IMG/VR virus record: IMGVR_UViG_3300012231_000004
Span: 1 to 49,234 of that record
Source of the DNA: a virus
Reading direction: 5' to 3' (one strand)
DNA: 49,234 nucleotides
The translations under genes were made by a program, and so were the position numbers. Shown here piece after piece: positions 2,165-38,749 of the stretch; the stretch's first letter is position 1; each line of letters opens with the position of its first letter. The notes below the pieces were generated by a model that saw only the letters and a list, made by a program, of their open reading frames with translations, did no database searches and had not been told where the DNA came from.

Positions 2165-4636
2165 ATGCCAAACATGGTGCCAGGCCAAGGGAATCCATAC
2201 TCTAAACTATTGATATTAGGTGACTTCCCCAACCAGACAGATGATAGATTAGAGAAACCATTTAACGGAGCACCAGGAGAATTATTAGATAGGATATTCA
2301 CAGAACTAGGTCATCCAAATTGGAAAACAGATTTCTGGTTGACTAACGTATATAGATACCGACCACCATTTAATGATGTAAAACAAATCAATACTGTATG
2401 TGACCCGGATGAGGAAAAGCAAAGACTCTATAGAGAAATCCTTTCTATTAACCCTAATTGTATCCTTGCTATCGGCCCTGTTGCTTTTGAATGTGTTTCT
2501 GGACTTAGTAAGATACTTCTTTACAGGGGTTCAATATTACCTAGTCAAGTAGGAGACTCTAAAGTAGTAGGAACAATACATCCTGGTCATTTAGTTAGAG
2601 CTTCCGATGAATCAGAAGACCATGATGAAAACAAAGGGATGTTCTCTTACGTCTGGAAATGGGTAGTTCAAAATGACATCAAAAGAGCAATCACTGAATC
2701 GAAGACAGTGGGCTGCGACCTACCTCAAAGGTCACTCCTTATTGCAAGAAATAGTGTTGACGTATCAAGGTTTATTGATAGGAACATCAAAAGCGGGGAT
2801 AGAGTCTTTGCAGACATTGAGACAATTAAATCAACAGTTGCAGGATGTGTTAGTCTTGCTTGGAACAGATATGAAGCCATCTCAATCCCCCTCTTCCCTA
2901 AAGTCGGAAATTATGAACTCTGCACAATCCCAACAACAGACCTCGTCTACATCTGGCAAAAGTTAGATTGGTTATTTAGGAATGTATTAGTAGCCGGCCA
3001 GAACTTTAAGTTTGACCAGGCTAAACTGGAGATGCTTGGCTTTAGATTCAAAGGTCTAAAGTCTGACACCTCTCTAAAAGCACATACTATCAACCCGGAA
3101 ATACCTTATGTTGGTTTGGCGTTCATCAGTTCAATTTGGACTAGAGAGCCTTACTATAAAGACGAAGGCAAAGAATTCATATTTGGAAAGCACGACATCG
3201 ACCGCTGGTTTTTATATAATGCTAAAGATTCCGCGGTGGATTGTGAAGTTGATGAGGTTCAAGAGAAAGAACTGGAAATACTCTCAGATATTTACAAGAC
3301 GGACCTGAAAGGTTTTTACTATAAGTATATCACAAAGCTCCATCAACTATATTATGAGATGGAATATAATGGATTTAGGGTAGATGATGGTCTTAGAGAT
3401 TACTTGATATGTAAGTATAAGACATGGGCTGAACATATTAAGGTAAAGCTGGATGTAGCAGTAGGAAGGAATATAAACTATAACAGTCCAAAGCAGGTAA
3501 AGGAATTACTATATGAGCAGATGGCAATTAAACCTATTGACCGCGACCACGGAACTAATGAAGATGTTATTAGTAGACTATTGAAAGACAAGGTAAAAGA
3601 TGACACCTATCGAACAATATTATCGGATATACTCGAAATACGCAGAGTTAATAAGACACTATCAACATATCTCTATGCAATGCCAGACTTTGATGGCCGT
3701 ATGCGAACACAAGTTAGAATCGCTGGAACAGAAACGGGTAGAAGTTCAGACAGTGTTTTGGAACCCCCCGTTAGACCAGTCAAAATTGGATTCGCTTTCA
3801 AAACACTTACAAAGCATGGGGATATCGGACAAGACATTAGAGGGATTCTTATTGCTGATGAAGGATATGTCATTGTTAACATTGACCTTAGTCAAGCTGA
3901 GGGACGAATCGTAGCTCTGTTGTCTAAAGATAAGAAACTATTAGAAGCATATGACAACATCGACATTCATAAGAGAACAGCAGCATTGGCTTTATTTACA
4001 GGCCAACTTAACCTGGACTATGCTTATGACCCGGTTGCTGATGTTCTTGGTAAGGATAGTCCTGAAAGATTTATAGGTAAAAAGACACGACACGCGGGCA
4101 ACTACTTCATGCAATGGAAAGAGTTTATGAAGCAGGTTGTTAGTGATTGTCGTAGGTTCCACATTCAGTTTACTATATCCGCTTTCTCAGCTAAGGTAAT
4201 ATTAGAGAGATTCCATGCCGCATCACCTAGTATTATGAACGTATTTCATGCGGAAGTTAAAGACCAAATAGATACAACGAGAGCACTAATCAATCCATTT
4301 GGTAGATTACGCCGCTTTTTTGACCGACCAGGACCACAGCTATATAAGGAAAGTTATGCTTTCATTCCTCAATCGACTGTTAAGGATAGACTCACTCACA
4401 GTCTATTGGAAATACGCGACAAGAAATACCCGATTAAGATGGTTAACGAGTCTCACGATAGTGTTACTTATCTTATGCCTATTGGTGAGTATCATGATAT
4501 CTGTAGGGAACTAAGACCTATTATAGAACAACCCATTGACTTCTCTACCTGCTCCCTTAAAAGAGGTTCACTGATAATACCTTGTGACTTTGAATATGGG
4601 GATAACTACAAAGACCTACAAAAGCTTAAGCTCTAG
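2165..4636 (+). CDS. Family-A DNA polymerase with an N-terminal family-4 UDG-like domain and a 3'-5' exonuclease domain
   Basis: UDG-like motifs: LILGDFPN, PFNGAPGELLDRIF, IHPGHLVR. Exonuclease motifs: VFADIET, YNAKDSAVD. PolA motif A NIDLSQAEGR, motif B RFIGKKTRHAGNY, motif C NESHDS. Confidence 0.85.
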   Translation: MPNMVPGQGNPYSKLLILGDFPNQTDDRLEKPFNGAPGELLDRIFTELGHPNWKTDFWLTNVYRYRPPFNDVKQINTVCDPDEEKQRLYREILSINPNCILAIGPVAFECVSGLSKILLYRGSILPSQVGDSKVVGTIHPGHLVRASDESEDHDENKGMFSYVWKWVVQNDIKRAITESKTVGCDLPQRSLLIARNSVDVSRFIDRNIKSGDRVFADIETIKSTVAGCVSLAWNRYEAISIPLFPKVGNYELCTIPTTDLVYIWQKLDWLFRNVLVAGQNFKFDQAKLEMLGFRFKGLKSDTSLKAHTINPEIPYVGLAFISSIWTREPYYKDEGKEFIFGKHDIDRWFLYNAKDSAVDCEVDEVQEKELEILSDIYKTDLKGFYYKYITKLHQLYYEMEYNGFRVDDGLRDYLICKYKTWAEHIKVKLDVAVGRNINYNSPKQVKELLYEQMAIKPIDRDHGTNEDVISRLLKDKVKDDTYRTILSDILEIRRVNKTLSTYLYAMPDFDGRMRTQVRIAGTETGRSSDSVLEPPVRPVKIGFAFKTLTKHGDIGQDIRGILIADEGYVIVNIDLSQAEGRIVALLSKDKKLLEAYDNIDIHKRTAALALFTGQLNLDYAYDPVADVLGKDSPERFIGKKTRHAGNYFMQWKEFMKQVVSDCRRFHIQFTISAFSAKVILERFHAASPSIMNVFHAEVKDQIDTTRALINPFGRLRRFFDRPGPQLYKESYAFIPQSTVKDRLTHSLLEIRDKKYPIKMVNESHDSVTYLMPIGEYHDICRELRPIIEQPIDFSTCSLKRGSLIIPCDFEYGDNYKDLQKLKL

Positions 4637-5844: not shown

Positions 5845-6068
5845 TGTTAGGTCGAGTAAAGAATATCAAACCTTCTCTATATGGCTTTATCCTTGATGAA
5901 GAAGGAAAGGAGTATTTCTTTCATGCACAAAACTATAATGGAGATTGGGAGGAGTTAAAGTTAATCTCTCCCCCCATTACCACTAAAGGACCAATAGTTC
6001 AGTTTACTCCAGTTAACGGTCCTAAAGGATTGAAGGCTGAAAAGGTAGAGTTTGTGGGTGACTTTTAA
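5844..6068 (+). CDS. Cold-shock-domain-like small OB-fold protein
   Basis: GRVKNIKPSLYGFILDEEGKEYFFHAQNY ... VQFTPVNGPKGLKAEKVEF resembles the CSD pattern. The ATG at 5844 overlaps the upstream TGA; a GTG at 5841 is an alternative start. Confidence 0.45.
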   Translation: MLGRVKNIKPSLYGFILDEEGKEYFFHAQNYNGDWEELKLISPPITTKGPIVQFTPVNGPKGLKAEKVEFVGDF

Positions 6069-9000
6069 CGCCCATAATCCCAGACTGATTTACCTCTCCT
6101 ATTAGAAGGAACAGGGGTAAATGGTTCAAAGGCAAAGGGATTCTTTTTCTTTTTACCATACTTTAATGGAGCTTCTGCTACTCTAGCGATAGCTTCCTCT
6201 CCAGTCATTCTACCTGTTGCATAGTTATAAGGAGCAGCAGCCTGTGGCGGTCCAAAGTTAATAGTCTGAGATAGAGTATTCCTTAATCTCTCAGCAGTCG
6301 GAACCTGCCTACCATATCTATCTCTAGTTCCAACAATATTCTTTTCTCCCTTATAATCCTCACCACTAGCAACCGCTAAAGCTGCATGAGTTAATGGTGA
6401 ACCTCGTCCTTCTAATGAACTCTCTAATACCTCTGCACCACCACCTTCTTCAACAGTAGCTTTAGCAATCTGCATTGGAATCTTAAAGAAGTCACCAGCA
6501 TTGTTGAATATCTTTAAGCCTCTGGTCTTCTTGTTCTCTACATCTTTACCTAACTTCATAGTAAACTGGTCAGATGTAGAGTTCTCCCACATGAACTTAC
6601 CAGTAGCCGCTTTCTGTGCAAGATTAGCAGCAGCATAGATAGCTAACATCCTACCACCAGCTTTAGCATAAGCCTGAGTAAGTGGGTCTTTAGGATTGGA
6701 TAGAATCTTTACCATAGACTTAGGAACATTGATACCCAAATCAACAGTAGACCTGAACCAATCAGGAGCAGCCATTGCAATCTTAGCAAAGGTATTGAAG
6801 TTCTTGTTATGATACATCAGGTCTAGATTCCTACCTGAATAGAATGAATCTCCTATCTTAACAGCAGCTTTACCTGCCTCATCTTCAGTCATTCCCTTCT
6901 TGAGATTCCTTTGGAAGTTATCCCAAGTAGCTTCTAATTTAGTAGCAGGAATAGTCTTATCGAACAGAGGCTTTTCAAAATACTTAGCCTGTAATTCAGA
7001 TAACTTATTAGCCGCTTCCTTACCCTTACCAAATATACCTTCAGTATTTTCAAATAGATTACCACCAGGTGAAGGATTCTCTACCTGCCCTCTATAACCC
7101 CACCGCTTAGTAAGATATTCAGCTTTTTTAGCATTCTCATCTAAATACTTACCAGCCGCTTCCGGGGACCAAGCATACTTAAGAGCCTTTAGATTCCTCT
7201 TAATACCACCTTCCATAAATGAACGACTCATAAATGGAAAGGCCATGTTAGCACCATGAGCGGTGAACAATGGCTTATTAGGAACAAGGCCAGAAGATAA
7301 TGCTAAGTTAGTCATCTTACCTGAGAACCTAGCAAGAGCTTGACCTATACCTCCACCTACTTTTTCCTGACTACCTAAGTAGTTTTCTAATACAGCTTTA
7401 ACAGATGGGTCTGCATAGTATCCTTCGAATGAACCATACTTAGACTCAATCTTTTGCATACCAGAAGTTCTATTCTTAGCCTGAACAAGATAACCCTGTT
7501 TCCTCAGACTCTTTAATGCCGCTCGGTCAGCGATTAACTTATTAACTCTCTGAGCATACCAATCCATTAGCTCAAGAGGTTTCATCTTTGGCTTAAGACC
7601 CTTCTCAATACCCTCTGCATAATCGTCAATAAAAGACCTAAACTGGAAGGATGCTTTCTCCCTCATGGTCTTATTACCAAATACAGCAGCTACTTCTTCA
7701 GGTGTATTATCCCACATCTGAGGTAAGTAGTTCTCCTTATAACCTACCTTAGCTCCCTTTGATTCTAATAGAGCATGAAGGTTATCAAAGAACTCTCTAA
7801 CTCTAGGATACTTACCAGCTTCTACATCCTCTTGGAATGGAACAATCTCATCCTTACTAATATGACCAATCTCATCCTTAAACTCATCTCTAACTTGTTT
7901 ACCAATAATCTCACTAGCACTACGACGCTTAATGAGTCTATCAGTAATCTCCTTAAACTTAGGATTAGCTTCCATGAACTTCTTATAGAATATCCTACCT
8001 ACCTTACCTACAATAGTAGCTGGTTCTACTCCCTTTTTCTTAGGAGGAATTGGAGGTTCTCCACTTTCTGTTTTTTTAGGTGAAGTAGGAGGCTTATTCC
8101 CACCACCAGAAGCACCATAACCAGCTAATACAGCAGTTCTAGTTCTATTAGGTAACTTATTAAATTGCTCTTTAGTTAATCCCGTAACTCTAGAAACATA
8201 GGCTTCTTTTGTCTCTACAGATGAAGCTTTACTTTCTCCAATACTTGGTTCAATTCCTCCTTGTCTTCCTTTGATGTTTGATGGTCCTTCTTTACCAATT
8301 CTTGCTCCCGGGATAAAGAACTCATTGCTGTTTGGTATCCAAGGGACTGCTTTAACTTGTTGTAATACTTCAAGTAACTCTGGAAAATGTTGTCCGTTGG
8401 CATCGAAGAATCCCTTTCTTAAAGTATCAATTATTTCTGGTAATTTGTCAGCAGACAATCTTCTAATTGCTGCCATACGAACACCATGAGAGTAAGACAT
8501 TTCATCACGAATTATATTATGTGCTAATTCATGCTCAAGAGTGTTTATTACATCAGCAATAAAACTATCTGGTCTTCCCTTTGATAACTGAGTCATATAT
8601 GGTAAATCAATAAATGCTCCAAATTCATAATTTAATTTCTGATAGATAGTATCAAGGTCAATATCCATTTCTCTAAACATCTTCTCTATACTTTTTATCT
8701 TTTTATGTTCTGCAAAATTAACTCTTGGATTAGAAACATTAACCCCCCATTGTTCTCCAGAAGGATGGGTAAATGCAAATCCTAATCTCTTTAATCTCTT
8801 TCTAATAAGAAACATTTCCTTCCCAATTTTATCTGTTGGGTCAGCAAGAGGTCTTTCAATAGCATCTAATATGATATTAGTGGCCTGTCTTAACGCACTA
8901 CCCATCTTCTTAAAAGCAGGGGAATGTTCAACAATAGCTTTACTCTCAGGTGATAAATAGCTACCAGGTTTATTGATATGAATTACATCATTCCCATCTG

Positions 9001-11653
9001 CACCAAGTCTTACTTCTGATTGTCCATCCCATACCTTTTGAATATACTCTGCTTCAGCTTTCTCTCTAGCTTTTCTTTCCATTCTTTCAAAAGGGTCTTC
9101 ATTAGGTCTAACAGCCATTTCTTTAGGTTCAATATCAGGTCCTCTAAAAGTATCCTGTCCCTTTCTCCATTCCTTTAGAACTTGTTGTTGAACATCCTTT
9201 GGTATCTTCTGGAATTGTTCAATAGGAACATTCAAAGTTCTCTTAATGAAATCAACAGCAGACTCACCTTCAATAGGTTCTGGTTTAGCTTCAATAGGAG
9301 ACTCTACTTTAGGAAGTTCTTTTACTACTTCTTTAGGAACAACAGACGTTTCTACTTCTGGTAGATTCATCCGCTTATTGGCAATATCTGCCATATCAGC
9401 AAACTTAAGAACTCTACCTCTCCAGGTTTCACCCTTCTTTAATTCAGCCTTACCACCAGTAGACAGAACATCTCTATATTCTACATCTTTTGCACCAGTA
9501 GCATCCATCTCTGCTACAATAGCTCTATACCTTTCAGATAAACTTCTGGTAGCTTCATGCTTCTTAATAGTTTCAGCATGAGGATTAACTGGTTCTTCTG
9601 TCTTTGGTTGTTCAACAGGAGGCAATTCCTTTACAACCTGCTTAGGAACAACAGAAGTATCTACCTCTGGAGTAGCAGCAGCTTTAGCAGACCTAGCAGC
9701 TTGAACTGCCTTTTCATAGTTTTCAGCAGCAGTAATCTCTCTCTGTCTAAAATGTTCAATATTAGCTTCTGCTTCTGCAATAGACCTTATTTCTGTTTTA
9801 GTAGCCCAATCTCTTTCCCAATCAACTTGCTCAGGAGGCATCCCTTTAATCTTAGCAAGTTTAGCGACCTTTTCTTTTACAGTCTGACCATGTGCCCAAG
9901 AAACATAAGCTAATCTTTGAGTAGAACCTGGCTTACCTTTCTTTGGCTCAGTAGTAAATAACTTTGGTCCTGTCGGTTCTGCCTTAGCTTTAGGAGTCTT
10001 TGGAGAAGTTAATACAGCACCTTCATTAGTAGGTAGAACATTAGTAATAGAACGAACAGAATCTAAAGATGCCTGTAAGTTAGCTTCTGAGATACCAAGG
10101 GACTTCGCGGTTTTGGCAATATCCATCCCATTGGCATTGAAATCTTCTACTATAATACGAAGTCTAGGAGTAAGACCTTCAAACTCATCTGCTGGTATAG
10201 GTGCTACATTACCTGCTTTGTCTCTAATCTTAAATGTTGGTTGTTCTACCTTTGGTTGAGGCTGTTCAACTTTTGGTTGTGTAATAGGCTCAACAGTAGG
10301 TAGAGTTTTTACTGCTTCTTTAGGAACAACATTTGTCTCTACTTTAGGTAATTCCCTAATAGGTTTCTCAACAGGTAATGGAGCCTCTACTTGGGGAGCA
10401 TTTAGATTAGCCTCAACCCACTTATTTGCCAGGTAATCAGAATTAAATGGACCAGAGGGTCTACGTAATGTTGGACTCTCTACCCAATATTTTCCATCTT
10501 TCTTTAATAAAACTTGGAATCCAGTTTCACTAGGGGCAGGTGGAACTTCTGGTTGTTTTACAGGTTCAACAGGAGCTTCAACAGAAGGTAATGCTCTAAC
10601 CTTTTGCTTAGCTTTCTCAAAAGCATCTACTACTTTCTGTTTAGGAGTAGGAGGAGCTTGTGCAATAGGAGTTACTGGAGGTAATGGTTGTGCTTGTTGT
10701 GGAATAACAGGTGGTTGTTGAATAGGAGTAGGTGGTATAGATGGAACTTGTTGAACAGGCGCAGCAGCTTGTGGAGCAACAGGAGGATTAACTCCCATAT
10801 CAATAGAAGACTTTATCTTATCTCTAATAGAAGTGGCTTCTTCAACAGAGACACCTAATCTCTTCTGAATAGTAGCAACAGATGGAACTCTACTCTTTGG
10901 TTGTCCATTAGCAGGAGCAGTAGGAGGTGGTCCACTTGGAGGAACAACACTAGTATCTACATCAGGAACAACTTTAACATTAGGTTTACCGGCTGGTAAT
11001 GCAGTAGGGTCAATACCTTTAGTTCTAATCTTTGGGTAGGCAGCAAATCCACCACCTAATGCACCACCCATTACTCCGCCCATTACTCCAGCTTCACCTA
11101 CTTGTGGTAAAGATGGTAATTCACCAGTCTCAGCTAATTGTGTTGGAACAGTAGCAGCAGCATTAACAACTCCACCTTCTAATGCTGCTCTACCAGCATA
11201 CTTACCAATTTGTCCCCAAGTAGCACCTGCACCTGGAAACTTACCTAAGAATGGAATAGCACCTACACCAGTTTGAACAGCTACTTGAGCAGGATTAAAC
11301 TCTTTTCTAATACCTCTAACTTTCTCATACCATTCAGCTAATCCTTCTCCAATACCAGCACCAGCAGCACCACCAATAGAACCACCTGCTAATGTTCCAA
11401 CGCCCATAGTAGCAGCGCCAGTAGCAGTTCCACCTACTACTCCACCAACAACAGCAGGAATAGTTCTTAATCCACCAGAAACCCACTTATCTAATGTAGT
11501 AGGTTCTGTAGAAGTATTAACCCGCTTTACTGGAGCAGGCGGAGGAGTAGGTTCAGGTCTGTTTTTAGCAAACCAATCATCTTCTTCCTCTACTTGAGTA
11601 GGGATATAATTCCTGCGAACAGGTTTATTTTGTTCAAACCAATCTTGTGGCAT
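6065..11653 (-). CDS. Giant (1862 aa) internal virion / DNA-ejection protein with Gly-zipper membrane segments, Pro-rich linkers and an HExxH zincin motif
   Basis: Last gene of the late arm, in the T7 gp16 position. Gly-rich hydrophobic runs (AVVGGVVGGTATGAATMGVG; GVMGGVMGGALGGGF). LEHELAHNII encoded at ~8512-8545. A four-fold (E/D)V(E/D)T(S/N)VVP repeat. Confidence 0.6.
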   Translation of the reverse strand: MPQDWFEQNKPVRRNYIPTQVEEEDDWFAKNRPEPTPPPAPVKRVNTSTEPTTLDKWVSGGLRTIPAVVGGVVGGTATGAATMGVGTLAGGSIGGAAGAGIGEGLAEWYEKVRGIRKEFNPAQVAVQTGVGAIPFLGKFPGAGATWGQIGKYAGRAALEGGVVNAAATVPTQLAETGELPSLPQVGEAGVMGGVMGGALGGGFAAYPKIRTKGIDPTALPAGKPNVKVVPDVDTSVVPPSGPPPTAPANGQPKSRVPSVATIQKRLGVSVEEATSIRDKIKSSIDMGVNPPVAPQAAAPVQQVPSIPPTPIQQPPVIPQQAQPLPPVTPIAQAPPTPKQKVVDAFEKAKQKVRALPSVEAPVEPVKQPEVPPAPSETGFQVLLKKDGKYWVESPTLRRPSGPFNSDYLANKWVEANLNAPQVEAPLPVEKPIRELPKVETNVVPKEAVKTLPTVEPITQPKVEQPQPKVEQPTFKIRDKAGNVAPIPADEFEGLTPRLRIIVEDFNANGMDIAKTAKSLGISEANLQASLDSVRSITNVLPTNEGAVLTSPKTPKAKAEPTGPKLFTTEPKKGKPGSTQRLAYVSWAHGQTVKEKVAKLAKIKGMPPEQVDWERDWATKTEIRSIAEAEANIEHFRQREITAAENYEKAVQAARSAKAAATPEVDTSVVPKQVVKELPPVEQPKTEEPVNPHAETIKKHEATRSLSERYRAIVAEMDATGAKDVEYRDVLSTGGKAELKKGETWRGRVLKFADMADIANKRMNLPEVETSVVPKEVVKELPKVESPIEAKPEPIEGESAVDFIKRTLNVPIEQFQKIPKDVQQQVLKEWRKGQDTFRGPDIEPKEMAVRPNEDPFERMERKAREKAEAEYIQKVWDGQSEVRLGADGNDVIHINKPGSYLSPESKAIVEHSPAFKKMGSALRQATNIILDAIERPLADPTDKIGKEMFLIRKRLKRLGFAFTHPSGEQWGVNVSNPRVNFAEHKKIKSIEKMFREMDIDLDTIYQKLNYEFGAFIDLPYMTQLSKGRPDSFIADVINTLEHELAHNIIRDEMSYSHGVRMAAIRRLSADKLPEIIDTLRKGFFDANGQHFPELLEVLQQVKAVPWIPNSNEFFIPGARIGKEGPSNIKGRQGGIEPSIGESKASSVETKEAYVSRVTGLTKEQFNKLPNRTRTAVLAGYGASGGGNKPPTSPKKTESGEPPIPPKKKGVEPATIVGKVGRIFYKKFMEANPKFKEITDRLIKRRSASEIIGKQVRDEFKDEIGHISKDEIVPFQEDVEAGKYPRVREFFDNLHALLESKGAKVGYKENYLPQMWDNTPEEVAAVFGNKTMREKASFQFRSFIDDYAEGIEKGLKPKMKPLELMDWYAQRVNKLIADRAALKSLRKQGYLVQAKNRTSGMQKIESKYGSFEGYYADPSVKAVLENYLGSQEKVGGGIGQALARFSGKMTNLALSSGLVPNKPLFTAHGANMAFPFMSRSFMEGGIKRNLKALKYAWSPEAAGKYLDENAKKAEYLTKRWGYRGQVENPSPGGNLFENTEGIFGKGKEAANKLSELQAKYFEKPLFDKTIPATKLEATWDNFQRNLKKGMTEDEAGKAAVKIGDSFYSGRNLDLMYHNKNFNTFAKIAMAAPDWFRSTVDLGINVPKSMVKILSNPKDPLTQAYAKAGGRMLAIYAAANLAQKAATGKFMWENSTSDQFTMKLGKDVENKKTRGLKIFNNAGDFFKIPMQIAKATVEEGGGAEVLESSLEGRGSPLTHAALAVASGEDYKGEKNIVGTRDRYGRQVPTAERLRNTLSQTINFGPPQAAAPYNYATGRMTGEEAIARVAEAPLKYGKKKKNPFAFEPFTPVPSNRRGKSVWDYGR

Positions 11654-29345: not shown

Positions 29346-29720
29346 TTACTCGTTAACAATTTGTTTGTCGTATTCAGCTTCAGTTACAGGCTCATGCTTA
29401 CGCTGATTAAATGCAACCTGCTCTCTCATCCTAGTATGGACTGACTTATATCCTCTGTTAGATTTGAAGTCTACTTCATTCCTAACTCTTTCAGGACGTT
29501 CTTCTTTAAGCTGAGCACGTAACCAAGCTATCTCATCCTGAAGATATACTATAAATTCGTTCTTAGAATTAACGAAAGCGTCGAAAGCCTCTACGTCTAA
29601 ATGTATAACTCGAATCTTGTTTCTTTCCTTGTTTGCTCTCCAGGAACTCCATCTTTCTGTAATAAGATGTTTGGTCCCCGTTAGCCAATTCTGTAAGTGC
29701 TTCATTAGATTTTTGAGCAT
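29346..29720 (-). CDS. Hypothetical coiled-coil protein between TerL and portal
   Basis: 124-aa ORF. The only ATG starts (29720 and 29705) lie inside the 3' end of terL in another frame. Confidence 0.4.
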   Translation of the reverse strand: MLKNLMKHLQNWLTGTKHLITERWSSWRANKERNKIRVIHLDVEAFDAFVNSKNEFIVYLQDEIAWLRAQLKEERPERVRNEVDFKSNRGYKSVHTRMREQVAFNQRKHEPVTEAEYDKQIVNE

Positions 29721-31242
29721 GTTCTAAACTTTTTGCATTAGCAACCTGATAGTCCTTAATTCCACCCAACAGGATACGCAAGCAATCGTAAGGGTCATCA
29801 CCATCAAACTCTTTAACATCTTCTGCCTTCTTTCCTTCATCTGGACTATCTTCATATACACAAGCGGGTAATGTTTCTATGAGCAACGGACAACTGTTAA
29901 AAATCTGAAGCTTTGGAAGATTATCTTCTTCCTTTTGTGTTTCGAACATCCTAACATAATCCACATATGCTTTCTGCCCATAGAGCCTAAAAATCTTATC
30001 CGCATAGTCTTTATCAAAATCTCCATATATCTTGATGGGGTTCTCTTTAGGACTCCATCTTAAGAACTCATGGACTGCAATCTTTCCATTGATTCGATTC
30101 TTTTCCCCTAGTGTTACTGGGCACTTAAAGTCAGCGTGTCTTAGGGCGCGGGTTAGCTGTTCATATATAGTAGCAGGTTCTCCCCGGTTCTGGTCTGCTG
30201 AATGACATATAGCTACCTTTGATACTAGAACCTTTTCTTCTGGTTCAGTTAAGTTTACTAAATCTGAAAGGTAATCTACTATCAATCTTTCCTTTACTGC
30301 ATACTCTCTATATATGTATATCCTACCAGTAGGAGCTAAAGCAGCCCAGTAAACAACAGTATAAGCAGCAAAACCCCAATCAATTCCAATAAAACGAGGC
30401 CACCAAGACGGAATAGTAAAAGGTTCAATAACATGCCTAGCATTATCCGGCTCATCTGATAAAGGTTCAAGTCTAAACTCTTTGAAGACTTGTCCTTCGT
30501 ATGTATCCCAATCGCCATATAGTTTAGCTTTCTTCTCTGCTTCTGACAGAGACATTAGCTGCTGTATATATTCTGGATTGTTTGCTAATAGAGTTGGATT
30601 ATCCTGAATCCTTGCTGGAATAAAGATTCTCTTTAAGCCAGTCTTTCCATCTATTAAGAGTTTATATCCTTCCTTATAAGGTTTAACAAATCTGTTTTTG
30701 AAATAGGAATGGCCAACATTTCCTGGATTCGTTCCACTTCTTGCAATCGCTGGTAAGTCGGCGCATCTACTGCGTAAGCGAGACATGACGAGATAGGAAT
30801 ATTGGAACTCTGTAAAATGGGTCGCTTCATCATAGGATATGAGATTATACTGGTCTGAGTCAAACTTTCTAATATCGTCTTCTTTATCTGCTCCCCCGAA
30901 GTATTGGACAGCTCCACTTGGGAATGTCCATTTCTTTTTTGTTTCATTAAATACTGCTCCTAATGCTGGATATATCTCTTTGCTTCTTGATATTAACTCT
31001 GTCTCTAACTGCTTTAAGTTTCTTCTTAATATGATTCCTTTATAAAGAGGATGCTCATGGAACTGATATATTAAGGGCATCCATACTACTACTTCCGTTT
31101 TACCCGCGCCGGCTGCTCCACCATATAAAGCTTCTTTAACAGACCAAGGAATAGAGATAAAATCATTCTGCTTCTTAGTAGGATTGAACTCTCTTTCTAC
31201 TACAGAAGTAACTTCTATCTGTTGTGCCTTGGCTTGGAACAT
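29569..31242 (-). CDS. terL: Terminase large subunit
   Basis: Walker A GGAAGAGKTEV, Walker B LISYDEATHF, and nuclease-domain acidic motifs IGIDWGF and DDPYDCLR. Confidence 0.85.
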   Translation of the reverse strand: MFQAKAQQIEVTSVVEREFNPTKKQNDFISIPWSVKEALYGGAAGAGKTEVVVWMPLIYQFHEHPLYKGIILRRNLKQLETELISRSKEIYPALGAVFNETKKKWTFPSGAVQYFGGADKEDDIRKFDSDQYNLISYDEATHFTEFQYSYLVMSRLRSRCADLPAIARSGTNPGNVGHSYFKNRFVKPYKEGYKLLIDGKTGLKRIFIPARIQDNPTLLANNPEYIQQLMSLSEAEKKAKLYGDWDTYEGQVFKEFRLEPLSDEPDNARHVIEPFTIPSWWPRFIGIDWGFAAYTVVYWAALAPTGRIYIYREYAVKERLIVDYLSDLVNLTEPEEKVLVSKVAICHSADQNRGEPATIYEQLTRALRHADFKCPVTLGEKNRINGKIAVHEFLRWSPKENPIKIYGDFDKDYADKIFRLYGQKAYVDYVRMFETQKEEDNLPKLQIFNSCPLLIETLPACVYEDSPDEGKKAEDVKEFDGDDPYDCLRILLGGIKDYQVANAKSLEHAQKSNEALTELANGDQTSYYRKMEFLESKQGKKQDSSYTFRRRGFRRFR

Positions 31243-33347: not shown

Positions 33348-33794
33348 TCATTGTTCTCCAGCTAAGTATCGTTTGAATTCTCTACTTTTTGGTATTGCAC
33401 GATACTTGTTGAATTTTGTAATATTGTTTGTTCTATAGAATGTTAAGCAAGGAGGACAACAAGCAACTTGTTCTTTTGTTTCAAATCTATGGTTGCAACG
33501 AATACAAATCTTTTCAGTTAAAACTCCATTATACTTCGGAGTTAATTTCTTTATGAGTTCTCTTTCTAATTCTCTTGGATTATTTGTATGCCAAATGTCT
33601 ATAAAATCTTCTTCTAATCGTTTCTCTACTTTACCTATAACATGATGATTACCAAATGGCCTCCAGCTTCCTATAAAACTCATTCCAATATATAAGTAAG
33701 TTTCTATTCTTCTCCAACCATATACTATTCTTCCTTCATAAAAATCATTCTCTTTTAAGGACTTGATTGGGGATACATCAACCCAAGTGCTCAT
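33348..33794 (-). CDS. GIY-YIG homing endonuclease with a C-terminal zinc finger
   Basis: RIVYGWRRIETYLYIGMS (GIY...YIG), a conserved R (SWRPFG), ELERELIKKLTPKYN, and CIRCNHRF...CCPPC. Confidence 0.6.
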   Translation of the reverse strand: MSTWVDVSPIKSLKENDFYEGRIVYGWRRIETYLYIGMSFIGSWRPFGNHHVIGKVEKRLEEDFIDIWHTNNPRELERELIKKLTPKYNGVLTEKICIRCNHRFETKEQVACCPPCLTFYRTNNITKFNKYRAIPKSREFKRYLAGEQ

Positions 33795-34294
33795 TACCTA
33801 CCATAGCACGTCTGTCAAGCGTTTTTTCCTAGCAATTTTGCTGTCCACACTTTGTCCCTAATCTGGGACTGTCCCAATTATTTTTCTAAATTTTGTTTTT
33901 CAATATTTATCTTAACAATCCTTTTCTACTTTACTGCAACAATCCTTTTTATACTTTTGGTCCAATATCACTCAGTATCTACCTTTCCCCGCTGACATAA
34001 GATATGGAACCGTAATGATTTGGGGTATGGGGTAGGGGGTATACTATACTCCAGTATACTATCATTAGGGTAAATGACCATAGGAAGACAAATGTCATCT
34101 GTCAGGCAGAATGGCAGACTTCTTATCCTTTGGCCTTTCAATTACTGGCCTGTATCCTCACATTAGGTCTGGTATAGCCGTTGCACTATAGGTCGGTGCA
34201 AGGCACGGCGGGTAACATTAGGCTTTGCCTTGTGTCTTCCCTTATTGCGCTGGAAAAACATCCCAGAGATAAGGCCGGACATAGTTCTTTGACA

Positions 34295-34326
34295 ACTGAA
34301 TATTGGCTAATCCAAGGGTTTGGATT
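34295..34326. repeat. Left arm of a 32-bp inverted repeat (partner at 35234..35265)
   Basis: ACTGAATATTGGCTAATCCAAGGGTTTGGATT matches the reverse complement of the right arm, ACTGAATATTGGCTAACCCAAAGATTAGGATT. 28/32 identical, with a perfect 16-bp core. Confidence 0.9.
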
Positions 34327-34365
34327 CCCTAAAGCTGACGAGCCTTTCACTGGAGAGGTAAGTCA

Positions 34366-34995
34366 ATGACCGAGATACTGAATACCGTCATCTCATTCAC
34401 GCTAAACCTTTGCCGTATTTCACGGCGAGGTAAGGCAGCCAAGGGGCACGTTACGGTCCATACGTTTGGCATTCCCGTTCTTAACCCGGACGGTATTGCT
34501 AAGGACTGGGATTACACGCCATTCGCAAACGGCAATATGTCGGATGCGATTGATGCGGTCCGTAGTCTTGGAATCAATCCTGTAATCGCTTTATTGCAGG
34601 GTGCCGACTTGGTAAACAAGTCTGATTCCATGCGTAAGCAAAACCAGCTCGGATTGCTTACGGCCAGAGTCCTTGAGATGGGATTGGCTCCAGATACTTC
34701 AGCGGCAGCTAAGATTGCCGATGCAATTCTGGAAACAATCAGACTCCAGCTTAAGGCTGGAATGGACCCGGACGATATTCCAACAGTAGAGTTTATGTTG
34801 GAATCCAAGCGTAAGAGACTGGCAAAGACAAATGCCAATCTTCCGCGACTCGTGGACAACCGCAATATCATTCCAGTCGATGAGATTGGTGATATTGAAT
34901 CTGACGATGATTCAGACGATGAGTTATCCGATGATGAAGACAACGACGAATCCGATTCAGACGATTCTGATTCGGACGAGGACAACCGCCTGTAA
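34366..34995 (+). CDS. Early protein with an extreme poly-Asp/Ser/Glu C-terminal tail (candidate DNA mimic / anti-restriction)
   Basis: 209 aa with a GGAGAGG RBS 7 nt upstream. The tail DIESDDDSDDELSDDEDNDESDSDDSDSDEDN is encoded at nt ~34882-34992. A sampled 60 nt gives ~50% GC, against ~37% elsewhere. Confidence 0.65.
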   Translation: MTEILNTVISFTLNLCRISRRGKAAKGHVTVHTFGIPVLNPDGIAKDWDYTPFANGNMSDAIDAVRSLGINPVIALLQGADLVNKSDSMRKQNQLGLLTARVLEMGLAPDTSAAAKIADAILETIRLQLKAGMDPDDIPTVEFMLESKRKRLAKTNANLPRLVDNRNIIPVDEIGDIESDDDSDDELSDDEDNDESDSDDSDSDEDNRL

Positions 34996-35067
34996 GTTAA
35001 CCCGGTTCGTCAGCTTCATGGAGTCCAAACCTTAGGATAGATTAGTGGGCTAGAATAGGAGCACACT

Positions 35068-35211
35068 ATGACAGAGAACGATAGAGTAGCCAGATTGATT
35101 CTCCAGTTCTGTTTGGTGACTGTAATGAGACAGAAAAGTCATTACAGAATGTCATCTGAGGAAATGGTTAGGGCATTCCTTACGTTCGTTAGGACTCACA
35201 ACCTACAATAA
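35068..35211 (+). CDS. Small hypothetical protein (47 aa)
   Basis: AGGAG RBS 6 nt upstream of the ATG. MTENDRVARLILQFCLVTVMRQKSHYRMSSEEMVRAFLTFVRTHNLQ. Below the ORF-track cutoff. Confidence 0.4.
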   Translation: MTENDRVARLILQFCLVTVMRQKSHYRMSSEEMVRAFLTFVRTHNLQ

Positions 35212-35233
35212 CCTGTAATTCAGCCCACTATTC

Positions 35234-35265
35234 AATCCTAATCTTTGGGTTAGCCAATATTCAGT
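35234..35265. repeat. Right arm of the 32-bp inverted repeat (partner at 34295..34326)
   Basis: AATCCTAATCTTTGGGTTAGCCAATATTCAGT, read directly. Confidence 0.9.
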
Positions 35266-35421
35266 AAGTTAACTCTATGGGAGTAGCAATTTTATATTGC
35301 TGGCTTTGTAATCCGAACTCCAGCTCGTGTATAAATTAAGGTTTATAGAATATGAAATGATAATATTAGTGTCTAAACAACTAAAGCGAATGACTTTTCC
35401 AGATACCTTGGGGAGCCTCTG

Positions 35422-35476
35422 CTATTTGACCGTATATCGACCGTGTATCGACTGATAATCGACCGATATTCGACCG
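35422..35476 (+). repeat. Left iteron array: five tandem 11-bp units (consensus wTATTCGACCG / TATATCGACCG)
   Basis: ctatttgaccg tatatcgaccg tgtatcgactg ataatcgaccg atattcgaccg, with exact 11-bp phasing. Confidence 0.85.
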
Positions 35477-35608
35477 GCATAACCTTGGGTAACGAAAAGT
35501 GAGAATACCCCAATGTTTACGGGCCTTTTCGCTTACCCCTATAGGGCTATCCCCTTATTTCTTGCCTGATACCCTCTGGGGTGGTCTTAGGGGGGTGTGT
35601 GTTCTTGT

Positions 35609-35642
35609 CTATTTATATATATAAAAAAATATATACATAAAG
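35609..35642. other. AT-rich core (candidate DNA-unwinding element) flanked by the short inverted repeat GTGTGTTCTT / AAGAACAACAC
   Basis: ctatttatatatataaaaaaatatatacataaag is almost pure A/T and lies midway between the two iteron arrays. Confidence 0.5.
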
Positions 35643-35655
35643 AACAACACAAAAA

Positions 35656-35706
35656 GGTGTCACCCATAGAGGACAGGTAGACTCATATCGAAAAGTATGG
35701 TATACT
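35656..35706 (+). promoter_or_regulatory. Rightward sigma70-type promoter with a conserved upstream module (GGTGTCACC-N4-GAGGACA-N2-TAGACT-N17-TATACT, TGn extended -10)
   Basis: -35 TAGACT at 35678-83, TGG at 35698-700, -10 TATACT at 35701-06. The same architecture occurs at 42647..42697. Confidence 0.55.
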
Positions 35707-35786
35707 CTACCAGGGGTAAGCTTAAACCCGCATAAACAAAGGGCCGGGAGCACTTTCCACTACCCAACCTTATACCAGAGGATAGC

Positions 35787-35841
35787 CGGTCGATAGCCGG
35801 TCGATGTTCGGTCAATAGCCGGTCAATATACAGTCGCTTCA
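35787..35841 (-). repeat. Right iteron array: four to five 11-bp units, the reverse complement of the left array
   Basis: cggtcgatagc cggtcgatgtt cggtcaatagc cggtcaatata (cagtcgcttca). CGGTCGAT is the reverse complement of ATCGACCG. Confidence 0.85.
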
Positions 35842-36052
35842 TTAGCCTTGGAAGAAAACGCACTAAAGTATAACATTGAAAATGTATATACATGATTAGA
35901 TTATCGAATGTTAGTGTATATACATATAATCTATAGCTGTTAATTTAACGCTTTATATGTTTAGAATGAAAGATAACAACTAAAGAGGCTTCCAAAGATT
36001 AAACAAAATACAATATAACACTATAAAGAAGAAATGTCCTCAAGTTGAGACA

Positions 36053-36082
36053 TTACGTCATAATATTGAACTGTGATATAAT
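36053..36082 (+). promoter_or_regulatory. Candidate extended -10 promoter for the small-ORF cluster
   Basis: TGaTATAAT at 36074-36082. The -35 is poor (TTACGT). Confidence 0.35.
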
Positions 36083-36152
36083 GGAGCGGAGCGAGCGAAG
36101 TCTATCTCTTTGGAATTAACCTTAGATTATAGACTTTATCTTAAGGAGGTAA

Positions 36153-36326
36153 ATGAATCCAACCTTGTATATCGTCACAGTAATGGGTTGTGAAATCTAT
36201 TACTACGGTTCTTTGGTGGTTGCAGTATGTGGTTCAGTAATTAAGGTTGGCAGAACCATTGAAACTGATATTAACTTCGAATTAGTTAACCGCTTAACCT
36301 GGGAGAATTGGAATTATGACGCTTAG
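36153..36326 (+). CDS. Small hypothetical protein (57 aa)
   Basis: Strong AAGGAGG RBS. MNPTLYIVTVMGCEIYYYGSLVVAVCGSVIKVGRTIETDINFELVNRLTWENWNYDA. Below the track cutoff. Confidence 0.5.
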   Translation: MNPTLYIVTVMGCEIYYYGSLVVAVCGSVIKVGRTIETDINFELVNRLTWENWNYDA

Positions 36327-36483
36327 AACAAAGTCTGAACTTCGTGCTGCTAGAATTGCAGCGAAAGCCAATGGGGAAAAGCTTATTGGAGAGCTTGCAC
36401 TTCCCCACAATTCAACAGCCTCCAAAAGAACACTGAATCGTAAGGCTGGTAGGCTTAGGGCAAAGTTGAGAGCGGGTAATTGA
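36316..36483 (+). CDS. Small basic hypothetical protein (55 aa)
   Basis: The ATG overlaps the end of the previous ORF, with a GGGAGA RBS. MTLRTKSELRAARIAAKANGEKLIGELALPHNSTASKRTLNRKAGRLRAKLRAGN. Confidence 0.45.
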   Translation: MTLRTKSELRAARIAAKANGEKLIGELALPHNSTASKRTLNRKAGRLRAKLRAGN

Positions 36484-36577
36484 AACAAGGGAAAGGGTAA
36501 TTCCTTTCCTTAAGTCCTTGCACTATAAAGACATAAACAAGGATTTAAGGAAGGGATAAACCTTCAGAAAGGATATT

Positions 36578-36730
36578 ATGACTGCTACTGTTATCGTGCT
36601 AGTGGTAAAGGCTGAAGTTTTGCAGGTTGCAATTCAAGAAGCCAAAGACAACGGCCAAAGGATTCTGGCTTTGTCACCCGCGAAGATTTACCGCACCAAA
36701 GTTACCGAATACACTTTGGTTGTTCAATAG
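36578..36730 (+). CDS. Small hypothetical protein (50 aa)
   Basis: AAAGGA RBS. MTATVIVLVVKAEVLQVAIQEAKDNGQRILALSPAKIYRTKVTEYTLVVQ. Confidence 0.4.
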   Translation: MTATVIVLVVKAEVLQVAIQEAKDNGQRILALSPAKIYRTKVTEYTLVVQ

Positions 36731-36761
36731 TTAACAGACTAAAGAAAGGAGGTTGGACTAT

Positions 36762-37253
36762 ATGACTTGCAATACAGGGAAATACAATTTCAAGCCGCGT
36801 AATCCATACCTTCTTTCTTTAGAGGGGAATCATGGTAGGTTCATTATCTCTTGTCGTCATAGAGATATACTCCGTGCTTCTACATCTAAGCATTTCCGCT
36901 CTTGCTATTCCAAAGATGGAATTAACAGACATATTCCTGCTAGGCTTTGCACTAATCCTGACATAGCAATAGTTGGGGAAAAAGATAAGGCAGGAGATTG
37001 GCTTTGGAGAGCATTTATTCGTTACTCTAGGGTATCAATAGATTATGTTGAGCCTAGATATGACGCATATGATGATTGGATACGTGGAACTTACAGCAAA
37101 CATAATCCGCCTATGTCTAAAGAGACTAGAGGTAGGATTGAAATGTTTCGCATCTATGGTAATTGCAATCTTAATGTAGATGCGATTAAGATTTTCCTTC
37201 AAGATTATGGGATACCGTTCTTTAAGTATTCCATATATGACGATGCTGTTTAG
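36762..37253 (+). CDS. Hypothetical early protein (163 aa)
   Basis: The ATG at 36762 is 9 nt after an AAGGAGG RBS. The track's TTG at 36753 has no spacing to that RBS. Confidence 0.6.
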   Translation: MTCNTGKYNFKPRNPYLLSLEGNHGRFIISCRHRDILRASTSKHFRSCYSKDGINRHIPARLCTNPDIAIVGEKDKAGDWLWRAFIRYSRVSIDYVEPRYDAYDDWIRGTYSKHNPPMSKETRGRIEMFRIYGNCNLNVDAIKIFLQDYGIPFFKYSIYDDAV

Positions 37254-38168: not shown

Positions 38169-38318
38169 ATGGATATGACTCTTTCTGCATGTGCCAAGTA
38201 TGATTTCGAGAACAAATTGAAATACAAACTTACCGGGTGGGGTAGGATTTGTAAAGATAGAGAGGCTCGTGGAATTAGCCGAAAGGCTATGAGACTCAAA
38301 AAGAAAGAAAATAAGTAA
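38169..38318 (+). CDS. Small basic hypothetical protein (49 aa)
   Basis: AAGGAG RBS 6 nt upstream. MDMTLSACAKYDFENKLKYKLTGWGRICKDREARGISRKAMRLKKKENK. TAATG junction with the next gene. Confidence 0.45.
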   Translation: MDMTLSACAKYDFENKLKYKLTGWGRICKDREARGISRKAMRLKKKENK

Positions 38319-38749
38319 TGACCAAAACTTTAGATATTTCTTGGCTTTCTGGTTTATTAGAAGGTGAGGGATGCTTTTATTATGGTGATTCTCCATCAAT
38401 CAAAGTAATGATGACTGATAGAGATACCATAGAAAAAGTAGCTCACTTACTCAAGATGCCAGTAAGTGAACAAAAGAAATACTCTAACTACAAACAAGTA
38501 TATATTGTAAGCATCCACGGTGATAGAGCAATAGGTTGGATGTTTACCTTATATTCTTTAATGGGAAAGAGAAGACAAGCTAAAATTAAAGAAGTCTTAG
38601 ATAAATGGAAAGATAAAGTAAGAAAGCAAGGGAATATAGACTCATTTATCTGTGGACATCCTAAATCACAAGAGAATACCTATTGGTCTGGTAGATATAG
38701 AGTATGTAGACAGTGCTCTATAGAAAGGAAAAGAGTAAAAGTCCTATGA
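38318..38749 (+). CDS. LAGLIDADG homing endonuclease (single-motif type) with a C-terminal Cys cluster
   Basis: LSGLLEGEGCFYY is the LAGLIDADG motif, followed by FICGHP...CRQC. Confidence 0.65.
   Translation: MTKTLDISWLSGLLEGEGCFYYGDSPSIKVMMTDRDTIEKVAHLLKMPVSEQKKYSNYKQVYIVSIHGDRAIGWMFTLYSLMGKRRQAKIKEVLDKWKDKVRKQGNIDSFICGHPKSQENTYWSGRYRVCRQCSIERKRVKVL

Follow-up and report, generated by a model that had tools for sequence, protein, structure and literature searches.

A phage early unit with an rrn-type boxA and three long-range RNA helices: a probable mimic of ribosomal RNA operon logic

Leader-trailer pairing in bacterial ribosomal RNA (rRNA, rrn) operons has been explained by a model in which boxA acts as a tether, and a ribonuclease III (RNase III) site overlaps the leader-trailer helix (PMC10250234). 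Here we analysed positions 1 to 49,234 of IMG/VR virus record IMGVR_UViG_3300012231_000004, a stretch that we call the window, and in it a unit on the + strand of two open reading frames (ORFs), ORF1 and ORF2, which is preceded by a boxA and enclosed by three long-range RNA helices, P1, P2 and P3. Its boxA has exactly the sequence found in real rrn operons. As in rRNA operons, the 5' strand of a long-range helix of 20-35 base pairs (bp) starts 0-25 nucleotides (nt) after boxA and the 3' strand lies just past the enclosed unit, two consecutive units are enclosed on one transcript and, in relatives of this phage, an intrinsic terminator stands at the end. Unlike in rRNA operons, the phage cargo is a translated ORF of 0.15-0.65 kb instead of a structural RNA of 1.5-2.9 kb, one boxA serves both units with no spacer boxA, the helices abut one another, a third helix closes a three-way junction in this lineage, and the whole resides in a phage genome.

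Several other described systems share parts of this arrangement. Lambdoid nut sites likewise place a phage-borne boxA where an early operon begins, directly ahead of the first early gene, and the present boxA, too, presumably engages host NusB/NusE. The present locus differs from them in having a full rrn-type boxA where lambda has a weakened version, in lacking a conserved boxB hairpin and a recognisable N homologue, and in the long-range helix that follows boxA. The early RNase III sites of phage T7 (R0.3, R0.5, R1 and others) are duplexes between early genes, including around the first, acidic early protein, and are thought to cut the polycistronic early RNA into individual messenger RNAs (mRNAs) with structured ends. 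The T7 sites are local hairpins of about 60 nt built from contiguous sequence, whereas here the arms are 170-900 nt apart, enclose an ORF and are coupled to boxA. Long-range intramolecular mRNA duplexes are typical mRNA targets of RNase III in Bacillus subtilis; unlike the present genes these targets are cellular, and the parts of that report drawn on here do not describe them as boxA-linked or as brackets around single ORFs (PMC11780869). mRNAs of the suhB type, like the present one, carry boxA in the 5' leader of a protein-coding gene, tens of nt from the start codon, but there boxA leads to translational repression and Rho termination, without a long-range helix (PMC5725501). The components, namely boxA, leader-trailer helices and long-range RNase III targets, are already known and their combination on phage ORFs appears to be new; the literature covered, which left most subscription journals outside, held no description of boxA-linked helices bracketing phage ORFs, of the three-way junction, or of a wide occurrence of the exact rrn boxA in non-lambdoid phages.

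We propose, with a probability of roughly 0.6, that the unit mimics an rrn operon by combining Nus-factor loading with leader-trailer helices that are probable RNase III substrates; the phage appears to express the two genes by the cell's own logic of rRNA transcription and processing. According to this proposal, nascent boxA would bind host NusB/NusE to form an rrn-type antitermination complex, in which the polymerase would be fast and Rho-resistant. boxA would stay bound to the polymerase and hold the leader arms at the RNA exit channel, with pairing occurring once the trailer arms emerge, and such a tether would explain how helices of 20-28 bp can form across 170-900 nt of RNA under translation. 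These duplexes would be cut by host RNase III, so that ORF1 and ORF2 would each be freed as an mRNA of its own whose 5' and 3' ends are paired, and boxA would be left base-paired to downstream RNA after cleavage. We infer the transcription start, Nus binding, RNase III cleavage and an effect of the unit on expression from its architecture, the cleavage being predicted from duplex length only.

Architecture of the boxA-linked unit

The preliminary description of this DNA had pointed to an inverted repeat of 34295-34326 with 35234-35265, complementary at 28 of 32 positions and containing a perfect 16-bp core. Recomputation gave the same count and the same core, which lies at the outer side of the repeat and reads ACTGAATATTGGCTAA. 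The repeat is far beyond chance: no other pair of 32-nt windows within 2.6 kb of each other reaches 28/32 anywhere in the 49 kb, and the best pairing in eight shuffles of the window was only 23-25/32. The arm core occurs at these two places alone in the window, and the 25 single, scattered matches to its 16-mer in IMG/VR were treated as chance. On the + strand three of the four mismatches are wobble pairs (U-G, G-U, G-U) and the fourth is U-U, instead of the two G-U pairs that had been counted. The spacing from the genes had been given correctly, with 39 nt separating the left arm from the ATG at 34366 and 22 nt separating the stop at 35211 from the right arm, as had the raised GC content of the segment (0.45-0.49, against about 0.35-0.40 in the flanks). 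A nested 9-bp pair around the small ORF does exist, but it is merely the inner end of a 27-nt, 85% complementary repeat of 35025-35051 with 35222-35248. Two features had been overlooked: a third repeat, 34310-34344 with 35004-35038 (35 nt, 83%), which surrounds the 209-amino-acid (aa) ORF alone, and the overlap of the left arm with a conserved boxA motif.

Together the repeats form a unit that reads, from 5' to 3', candidate promoter, boxA, the 5' arms of P1 and P2, ORF1, the 3' arm of P2 and the 5' arm of P3, ORF2, the 3' arms of P3 and P1, and a weak terminator. The arms are thus grouped at three sites, A, B and C, whose halves pair as A5':C3' (P1), A3':B5' (P2) and B3':C5' (P3), with each ORF looped out. 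The features are as follows.

34150..34178, + strand: putative early promoter (CTGTAT, 17 nt, TATAGC); boxA follows after about 106 nt
34284..34302, + strand: boxA, GTTCTTTGACAACTGAATA, a 19-mer identical in rrn operons and kept in the six lineages described below
34295..34326, + strand: P1 5' arm; 34290-34316 pair in the folded ensemble; overlaps the CTGAATA tail of boxA
34310..34344, + strand: P2 5' arm; 34317-34344 pair in the folded ensemble
34366..34995, + strand: ORF1, 209 aa; Shine-Dalgarno sequence GGAGAGG at 34352-34358, 8 nt past the P2 arm
35004..35038, + strand: P2 3' arm; 35004-35031 pair in the folded ensemble; begins 8 nt past the ORF1 stop
35025..35051, + strand: P3 5' arm; 35032-35054 pair in the folded ensemble; adjoins the P2 3' arm
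35068..35211, + strand: ORF2, 47 aa; Shine-Dalgarno sequence AGGAG upstream; variable cargo slot
35222..35248, + strand: P3 3' arm; 35220-35241 pair in the folded ensemble
35234..35265, + strand: P1 3' arm; 35244-35271 pair in the folded ensemble
35285..35335, + strand: weak A+U-rich hairpin (35285-35301), a T-rich run and promoter-like TTGTAA, 18 nt, TATAAA (35306-35335); likely where the two-gene unit ends and the next one begins

The minimum free energy and centroid folds of the RNA 34270-35290 both give the three-way junction, with mean pair probabilities of 0.96 for P1 (22 bp, 34295-34316 with 35244-35265), 0.85 for P2 (28 bp) and 0.86 for P3 (20 bp). A shared quasi-palindromic core is split among the helices, and almost no junction nucleotide is unpaired. 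The duplexes are more stable on the + than on the - strand, at -44.3 versus -32.2 kcal/mol for P1 and -50.2 versus -42.9 kcal/mol for P2.

The motif GTTCTTTGACAACTGAATA stands just 5' of the stems. It has one exact site in the window, 34284-34302, no other boxA copy in the window is sense to transcription, and it carries at most three substitutions in all six lineages while its flanks diverge. At least 120 loci in bacterial genomes, spread over very diverse phyla, contain the 19-mer without any change. Among the 121 bacterial loci examined with it, 45 sites are rRNA-linked and always sense: 23 loci have it 53-238 nt upstream of 16S, and 22 loci have it 59-229 nt upstream of 23S, in the spacer. 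Since the rrn leader and spacer are the positions of boxA antiterminators (PMC10250234), 34284-34302 is an rrn-type boxA. It matches the gamma-proteobacterial consensus GYTCTTTAANA (PMC5725501) at 10 of 11 positions, a consensus that may not be the host's. It is sense to ORF1 and ORF2, lies downstream of weak promoter candidates only, and is probably a NusB/NusE loading site on the nascent RNA.

The helices are placed relative to boxA much as in real rRNA loci. Where these carry the same motif, a leader-trailer helix of 27-35 nt surrounds 16S, with the leader strand starting at +15 to +23 nt; overall, leader arms in such loci start from 7 nt before to 23 nt after the motif end. In Acidobacteriota rRNA loci, the CUGAAUA tail of boxA itself pairs with the trailer, as in P1. 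In the window, the P1 arm overlaps the boxA tail and the P2 arm starts 8-15 nt after the motif. The inverted repeat had already been likened to the stems that flank 16S and 23S rRNA, and because the stems start directly after an exact rrn-type boxA this analogy turns out to be quite literal.

Conservation and recurrence of the helices

A search of 5.8 billion proteins yielded ORF1 homologues of 34-45% identity in five other lineages (L026, L028, L030, L033 and L031), along with many near-identical strains; pattern scans of IMG/VR and of JGI metagenome proteins added none. All lineages share the same synteny, in which the terminase and small - strand genes are followed by a gap of ~600 bp, ORF1, a small ORF, a non-coding region and more + strand genes. 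Every lineage has its own helix of 26-35 nt around ORF1, the counterpart of P2, and L026, L028 and L030 each have a complete helix of 24-26 nt around the second ORF, the counterpart of P3; the sequences of both differ between lineages. The L031 contig ends within the P3 5' arm. When the duplexes were aligned on a conserved AUUC core, compensatory change was found in 23 of 30 columns of P2, with 93% of cells paired across six lineages, and in 17 of 24 columns of P3, with 95% of cells paired across four lineages. Amid otherwise freely covarying pairs, P2 retains a conserved core (AUUC...UAAAG / CUU.AU.GAGU), and near the AUUC a U-G wobble is kept in five of the six lineages and a pyrimidine-pyrimidine mismatch in four of the six.

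The P2 3' arm adjoins the P3 5' arm in all four lineages that have both helices. The ORFs occupying the second slot in the relatives (63-85 aa) can neither be aligned with ORF2 nor be recognised as homologous to one another; these second-slot ORFs lie at 35068-35211 in the window, 4659-4916 in L026, 4684-4929 in L028 and 1054-1245 in L030. Because P3 is kept while the second ORFs are non-homologous, P3 is a conserved bracket around variable cargo, and the second slot looks like an exchangeable cargo slot. The inner end of this bracket (AGUGGSC / GSCCACU) is conserved in sequence in the window lineage, L026 and L028, and is variant in L030.

The strand on which the structure acts can be read from its imperfect pairs. 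In arms set by a strand-blind DNA repeat finder, the non-Watson-Crick positions comprise 24 G-U and 4 A-C on the + strand (binomial p = 9e-5), and this is the only fully unbiased G-U count that we report. Transitions from Watson-Crick pairs should yield G-U and A-C equally, so that a ratio of 24:4 points to selection on the single + strand, that is, on the sense RNA; the bias indicates that the structure is selected in + strand RNA.

The earlier suggestion that the inverted repeat is an RNA stem is supported, and more strongly than could be seen from the letters alone, by the covariation in relatives, by the G-U bias of the sense strand, by the adjacent boxA and by the finding of no terminator-like site on the + strand between the arms; it is largely right, although the very pair on which it was made is not conserved and the conserved units are the two inner helices with one ORF in each. 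The compensatory change expected of such a stem is seen for P2 and P3, whereas P1 has no counterpart: leader-trailer pairing in L026, L028, L030 and L033 was not above that in shuffles. Across 12 near-identical strains the arms contain a single substitution, 35254 C>T in strain L036; it replaces a G-C pair of P1 by G-U. The same strain differs from the window at 31 positions within the 72 nt of 34206-34277, just upstream of boxA, and at none from boxA to 34785; this edge of divergence indicates a recombination joint exactly at the conserved boxA.

Comparison with relatives also bears on the borders of the unit. The candidate promoter at 34150-34178 is kept in L036 despite the diverged surroundings, and -10-like hexamers precede boxA by ~80-110 nt in L028, L033, L031 and, by eye, L030. 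A consensus scan found no strong sigma70 site at 34150-34178 and only weak promoter candidates in the window. At the other end, intrinsic terminators are strong at the equivalent place in L028 and L033, where the window has a weak hairpin only. The promoter-like element at 35306-35335, just past the right arm, is shared with L030 (CTGTAA, 18 nt, TATAAT, at about 1330-1360) and probably starts the next transcription unit, reading into an iteron region.

The association of boxA with a bracketing helix recurs in unrelated phages. The 16-mer CTTTGACAACTGAATA is present in at least 120 IMG/VR contigs and a neighbouring 16-mer in 25, and the flanks of these matches are unrelated to each other. We rejected rRNA contamination as their source: Rfam detected rRNA in 0 of 15 loci, and 16S/23S landmarks were found at 0 of 122 occurrences. 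In unrelated phage loci boxA often follows a sigma70-like promoter by ~15-45 nt. We then compared 94 distinct IMG/VR loci with control positions from the same loci, taking 77 nt from the motif tail and seeking a partner within 1.5 kb. A long-range complement scoring at least 18 was found in 10 of 94 boxA windows and in 1 of 564 control windows (Fisher p = 2e-8); a long-range helix of 19-35 nt after boxA is about 50 times commoner in these contigs than at control positions. For most of the significant loci, the start of the helix falls within an interval from 7 nt ahead of the motif end to 10 nt past it. Six of the clearest examples have a single ORF of 78-306 aa inside the helix together with its Shine-Dalgarno sequence; the Shine-Dalgarno sequence and start codon follow the 5' arm by 20-31 nt, and 0-45 nt separate the stop from the 3' arm. 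The bracketed ORFs are unrelated to the ORF1 family by hmmsearch (best E = 0.9). Their helices also favour G-U over A-C, 23 versus 6, after strand-symmetric trimming that removes the bias of the scoring scheme.

The same rrn-type boxA lies, unannotated and intergenic, in Bacillus phages SPO1, SP82G and CampHawk, many Streptococcus Javan prophages, 16 mycobacteriophages and 9 Prevotella phages. In SPO1 it is located between gp29.1 and gp27.9 (NC_011421.1 97398-97417; L288 2501-2520), and no long-range partner of it was found. Some Streptococcus prophage loci contain two tandem units of boxA plus bracket, ~300 nt apart (L067 4619-4950, in minus-strand orientation; L070 1142-1700; L208 3188-3800). 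The roughly 210-230 nt inside each of these brackets contain no convincing ORF and match no Rfam family, and the enclosed segments may be small RNAs excised like rRNA. In a few IMG/VR contigs (L043, L046, L069 and others) boxA stands directly upstream of phage transfer RNA (tRNA) genes, which suggests Nus-dependent transcription of tRNA clusters.

Weighing the rrn-mimic reading against alternatives

Several observations weigh against the unit being an rrn mimic. Its promoter and transcription start are candidates at which we have only guessed, and where boxA lies close to a ribosome-binding site it can act the other way, repressing translation and favouring termination by Rho, as at suhB (PMC5725501, PMC12360218). 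L033 has no P3, and P1 is specific to this lineage, so that it could be a recent and weakly selected addition. The covariation was counted in few lineages (six), with the cross-lineage column alignment anchored by hand. Finally, ~85-90% of the phage loci that carry boxA, including SPO1, have no long-range helix.

The helices could instead act in the sense RNA without RNase III, closing the loop of each mRNA, with boxA still serving as antiterminator or tether. They might protect the ends from RNase E/J and 3' exonucleases, hide untranslated RNA from Rho, or link the end of translation at the stop codon with re-initiation or with exposure of the Shine-Dalgarno sequence. Such roles would suit the very tight wrap of the arms around the genes: in this unit, and in the majority of the unrelated phage loci that we inspected, the stop is 0-15 nt from the 3' arm and the Shine-Dalgarno sequence 8-20 nt past the 5' arm. 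They are also favoured by an extra helix that joins the Shine-Dalgarno region to the stop-codon region in the window lineage, L028 and L030, although this helix was not seen in L026 or L033. In Escherichia coli, moreover, the leader-trailer helix is essential in a way that does not depend on RNase III (PMC10250234). On the other hand, duplexes of 20-35 near-perfect bp are generic RNase III substrates, so that escape from cleavage would need anti-determinants. This explanation is compatible with all that we have shown; we regard it as unlikely.

A second explanation takes P2 as the binding site of a phage protein, most plausibly of ORF1, whose conserved basic motif RISRRGKAAKG would play the part of the arginine-rich motif of lambda N. 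boxA and P2 would then form a nut-like site in which a long-range helix replaces boxB, or an autoregulatory RNA operator. The irregular, sequence-conserved core of P2 fits such a site, but RNase III sites just as typically contain a conserved internal irregularity. In favour of ORF1 are its place as the first gene behind boxA and an invariant patch of basic residues; against it, ORF1 shows no detectable similarity to N or to any RNA-binding family, and in unrelated phages the bracket architecture surrounds ORFs that are non-homologous to ORF1. We consider this explanation improbable. A lambda-type nut site as such was rejected, as there is no conserved local hairpin after boxA across the lineages and no match of the neighbouring ORFs to an N-like family.

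It is very improbable that the arms act as DNA, whether as terminal inverted repeats of a cassette, invertase sites, half-sites of a looping operator, or cruciform or single-stranded structures tied to the origin-like region: the GC content of the segment above that of its flanks, the unrelated cargo of the ORF2 slot, the recombination joint of L036 exactly at boxA and an iteron-rich, origin-like region 160 nt downstream would favour such a role, but the unit has the same orientation and synteny in all six lineages, the arm sequences differ between lineages and so cannot be the sites of one conserved DNA-binding protein, G-T outnumbers A-C on the sense strand by 24:4, which would not be expected of double-stranded DNA repeats, and the association is with boxA, an RNA signal. 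The mobile cassette offered as the other option in the preliminary description finds no support, as no presence/absence variation was seen and the arms stay complementary while their sequences differ; the lack of a target-site duplication and of a nearby recombinase, already noted there as arguing against it, was confirmed. Among specific candidates, we rejected a mobile element with terminal inverted repeats of the miniature inverted-repeat transposable element (MITE) or insertion sequence (IS) kind (flanks CTTTGACA and AAGTTAAC not duplicated, arm core at two places only, no transposase or recombinase nearby, shared synteny in six lineages) and an invertible segment of the Hin/Gin type (no invertase found, all 20 or so contigs in the same orientation). 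An rRNA operon proper was rejected as well, the enclosed segments being protein-coding and 33700-36800 containing no Rfam family, with two sub-threshold microRNA chance matches only. Since the helices are rrn-like and the cargo protein-coding, the unit would work like an rrn helix without being an rRNA operon.

Genome context and implications

A megablast of 33800-36200 against GenBank phages gave no match; the window is a novel phage of ~49 kb, and the feature is its first early transcription unit. Packaging and structural genes, including the large terminase at 29569-31242, lie on the - strand up to 33794, and replication genes, including an SNF2 helicase and PolA, lie on the + strand from about 36150. 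The feature lies where the two gene sets diverge and the rightward (early) genes begin. ORF1 combines its basic N-terminal motif with an acidic Asp/Ser tail. Searches of ORF1 and ORF2 against Pfam and PHROGs returned nothing usable, and the AlphaFold2 model of ORF1 was mediocre (pLDDT 64), with no Foldseek match in the PDB below E = 0.6.

Two arrays of four to five 11-bp iterons (ATCGACCGnnT), in inverted orientation to each other, lie at 35425-35478 and 35785-35836, and between them are an A+T-rich stretch (about 35605-35650) and an inverted repeat (35509-35540 with 35712-35743). The region 35425-35836 resembles a replication origin and follows the boxA operon closely, and an analogous inverted pair of iteron arrays is present in L028. 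Elsewhere, the window encodes a family A DNA polymerase with an N-terminal uracil-DNA-glycosylase-like domain (2165-4636), an 1862-aa ORF without a Pfam match (6065-11653) and, among the early genes, an ORF for an HNH/LAGLIDADG-like endonuclease (38318-38749).

Taking the related and unrelated loci together, we suggest more tentatively, at somewhat less than even odds, that phages of many unrelated lineages have copied the whole logic of rRNA maturation, that is, a boxA-tethered leader, co-transcriptional trailer pairing and RNase III excision, for single ORFs and, in some Streptococcus prophages, for short non-coding segments. If this is true, selected early products would be transcribed by a polymerase complex of the rrn type that is proof against Rho, and would be freed as RNAs with paired ends. 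The window, in which a three-way junction closes two cargo slots, would then represent the most elaborate case, and its second slot would be exchangeable. The compact stems and short ORFs offer a directly testable system for the co-transcriptional formation of long-range duplexes on translated RNA, and they suggest how expression cassettes could be built that are insulated, Rho-resistant and self-excising. In the annotation of uncultured phages, a boxA with its bracket is a marker of immediate-early units. If the proposal holds, the RNA-chaperone role put forward for the rrn antitermination complex, in which the leader is held at the polymerase until its distant partner is made, would extend to mRNAs, and phages would use host Nus-factor antitermination far beyond the lambdoid N/nut paradigm.

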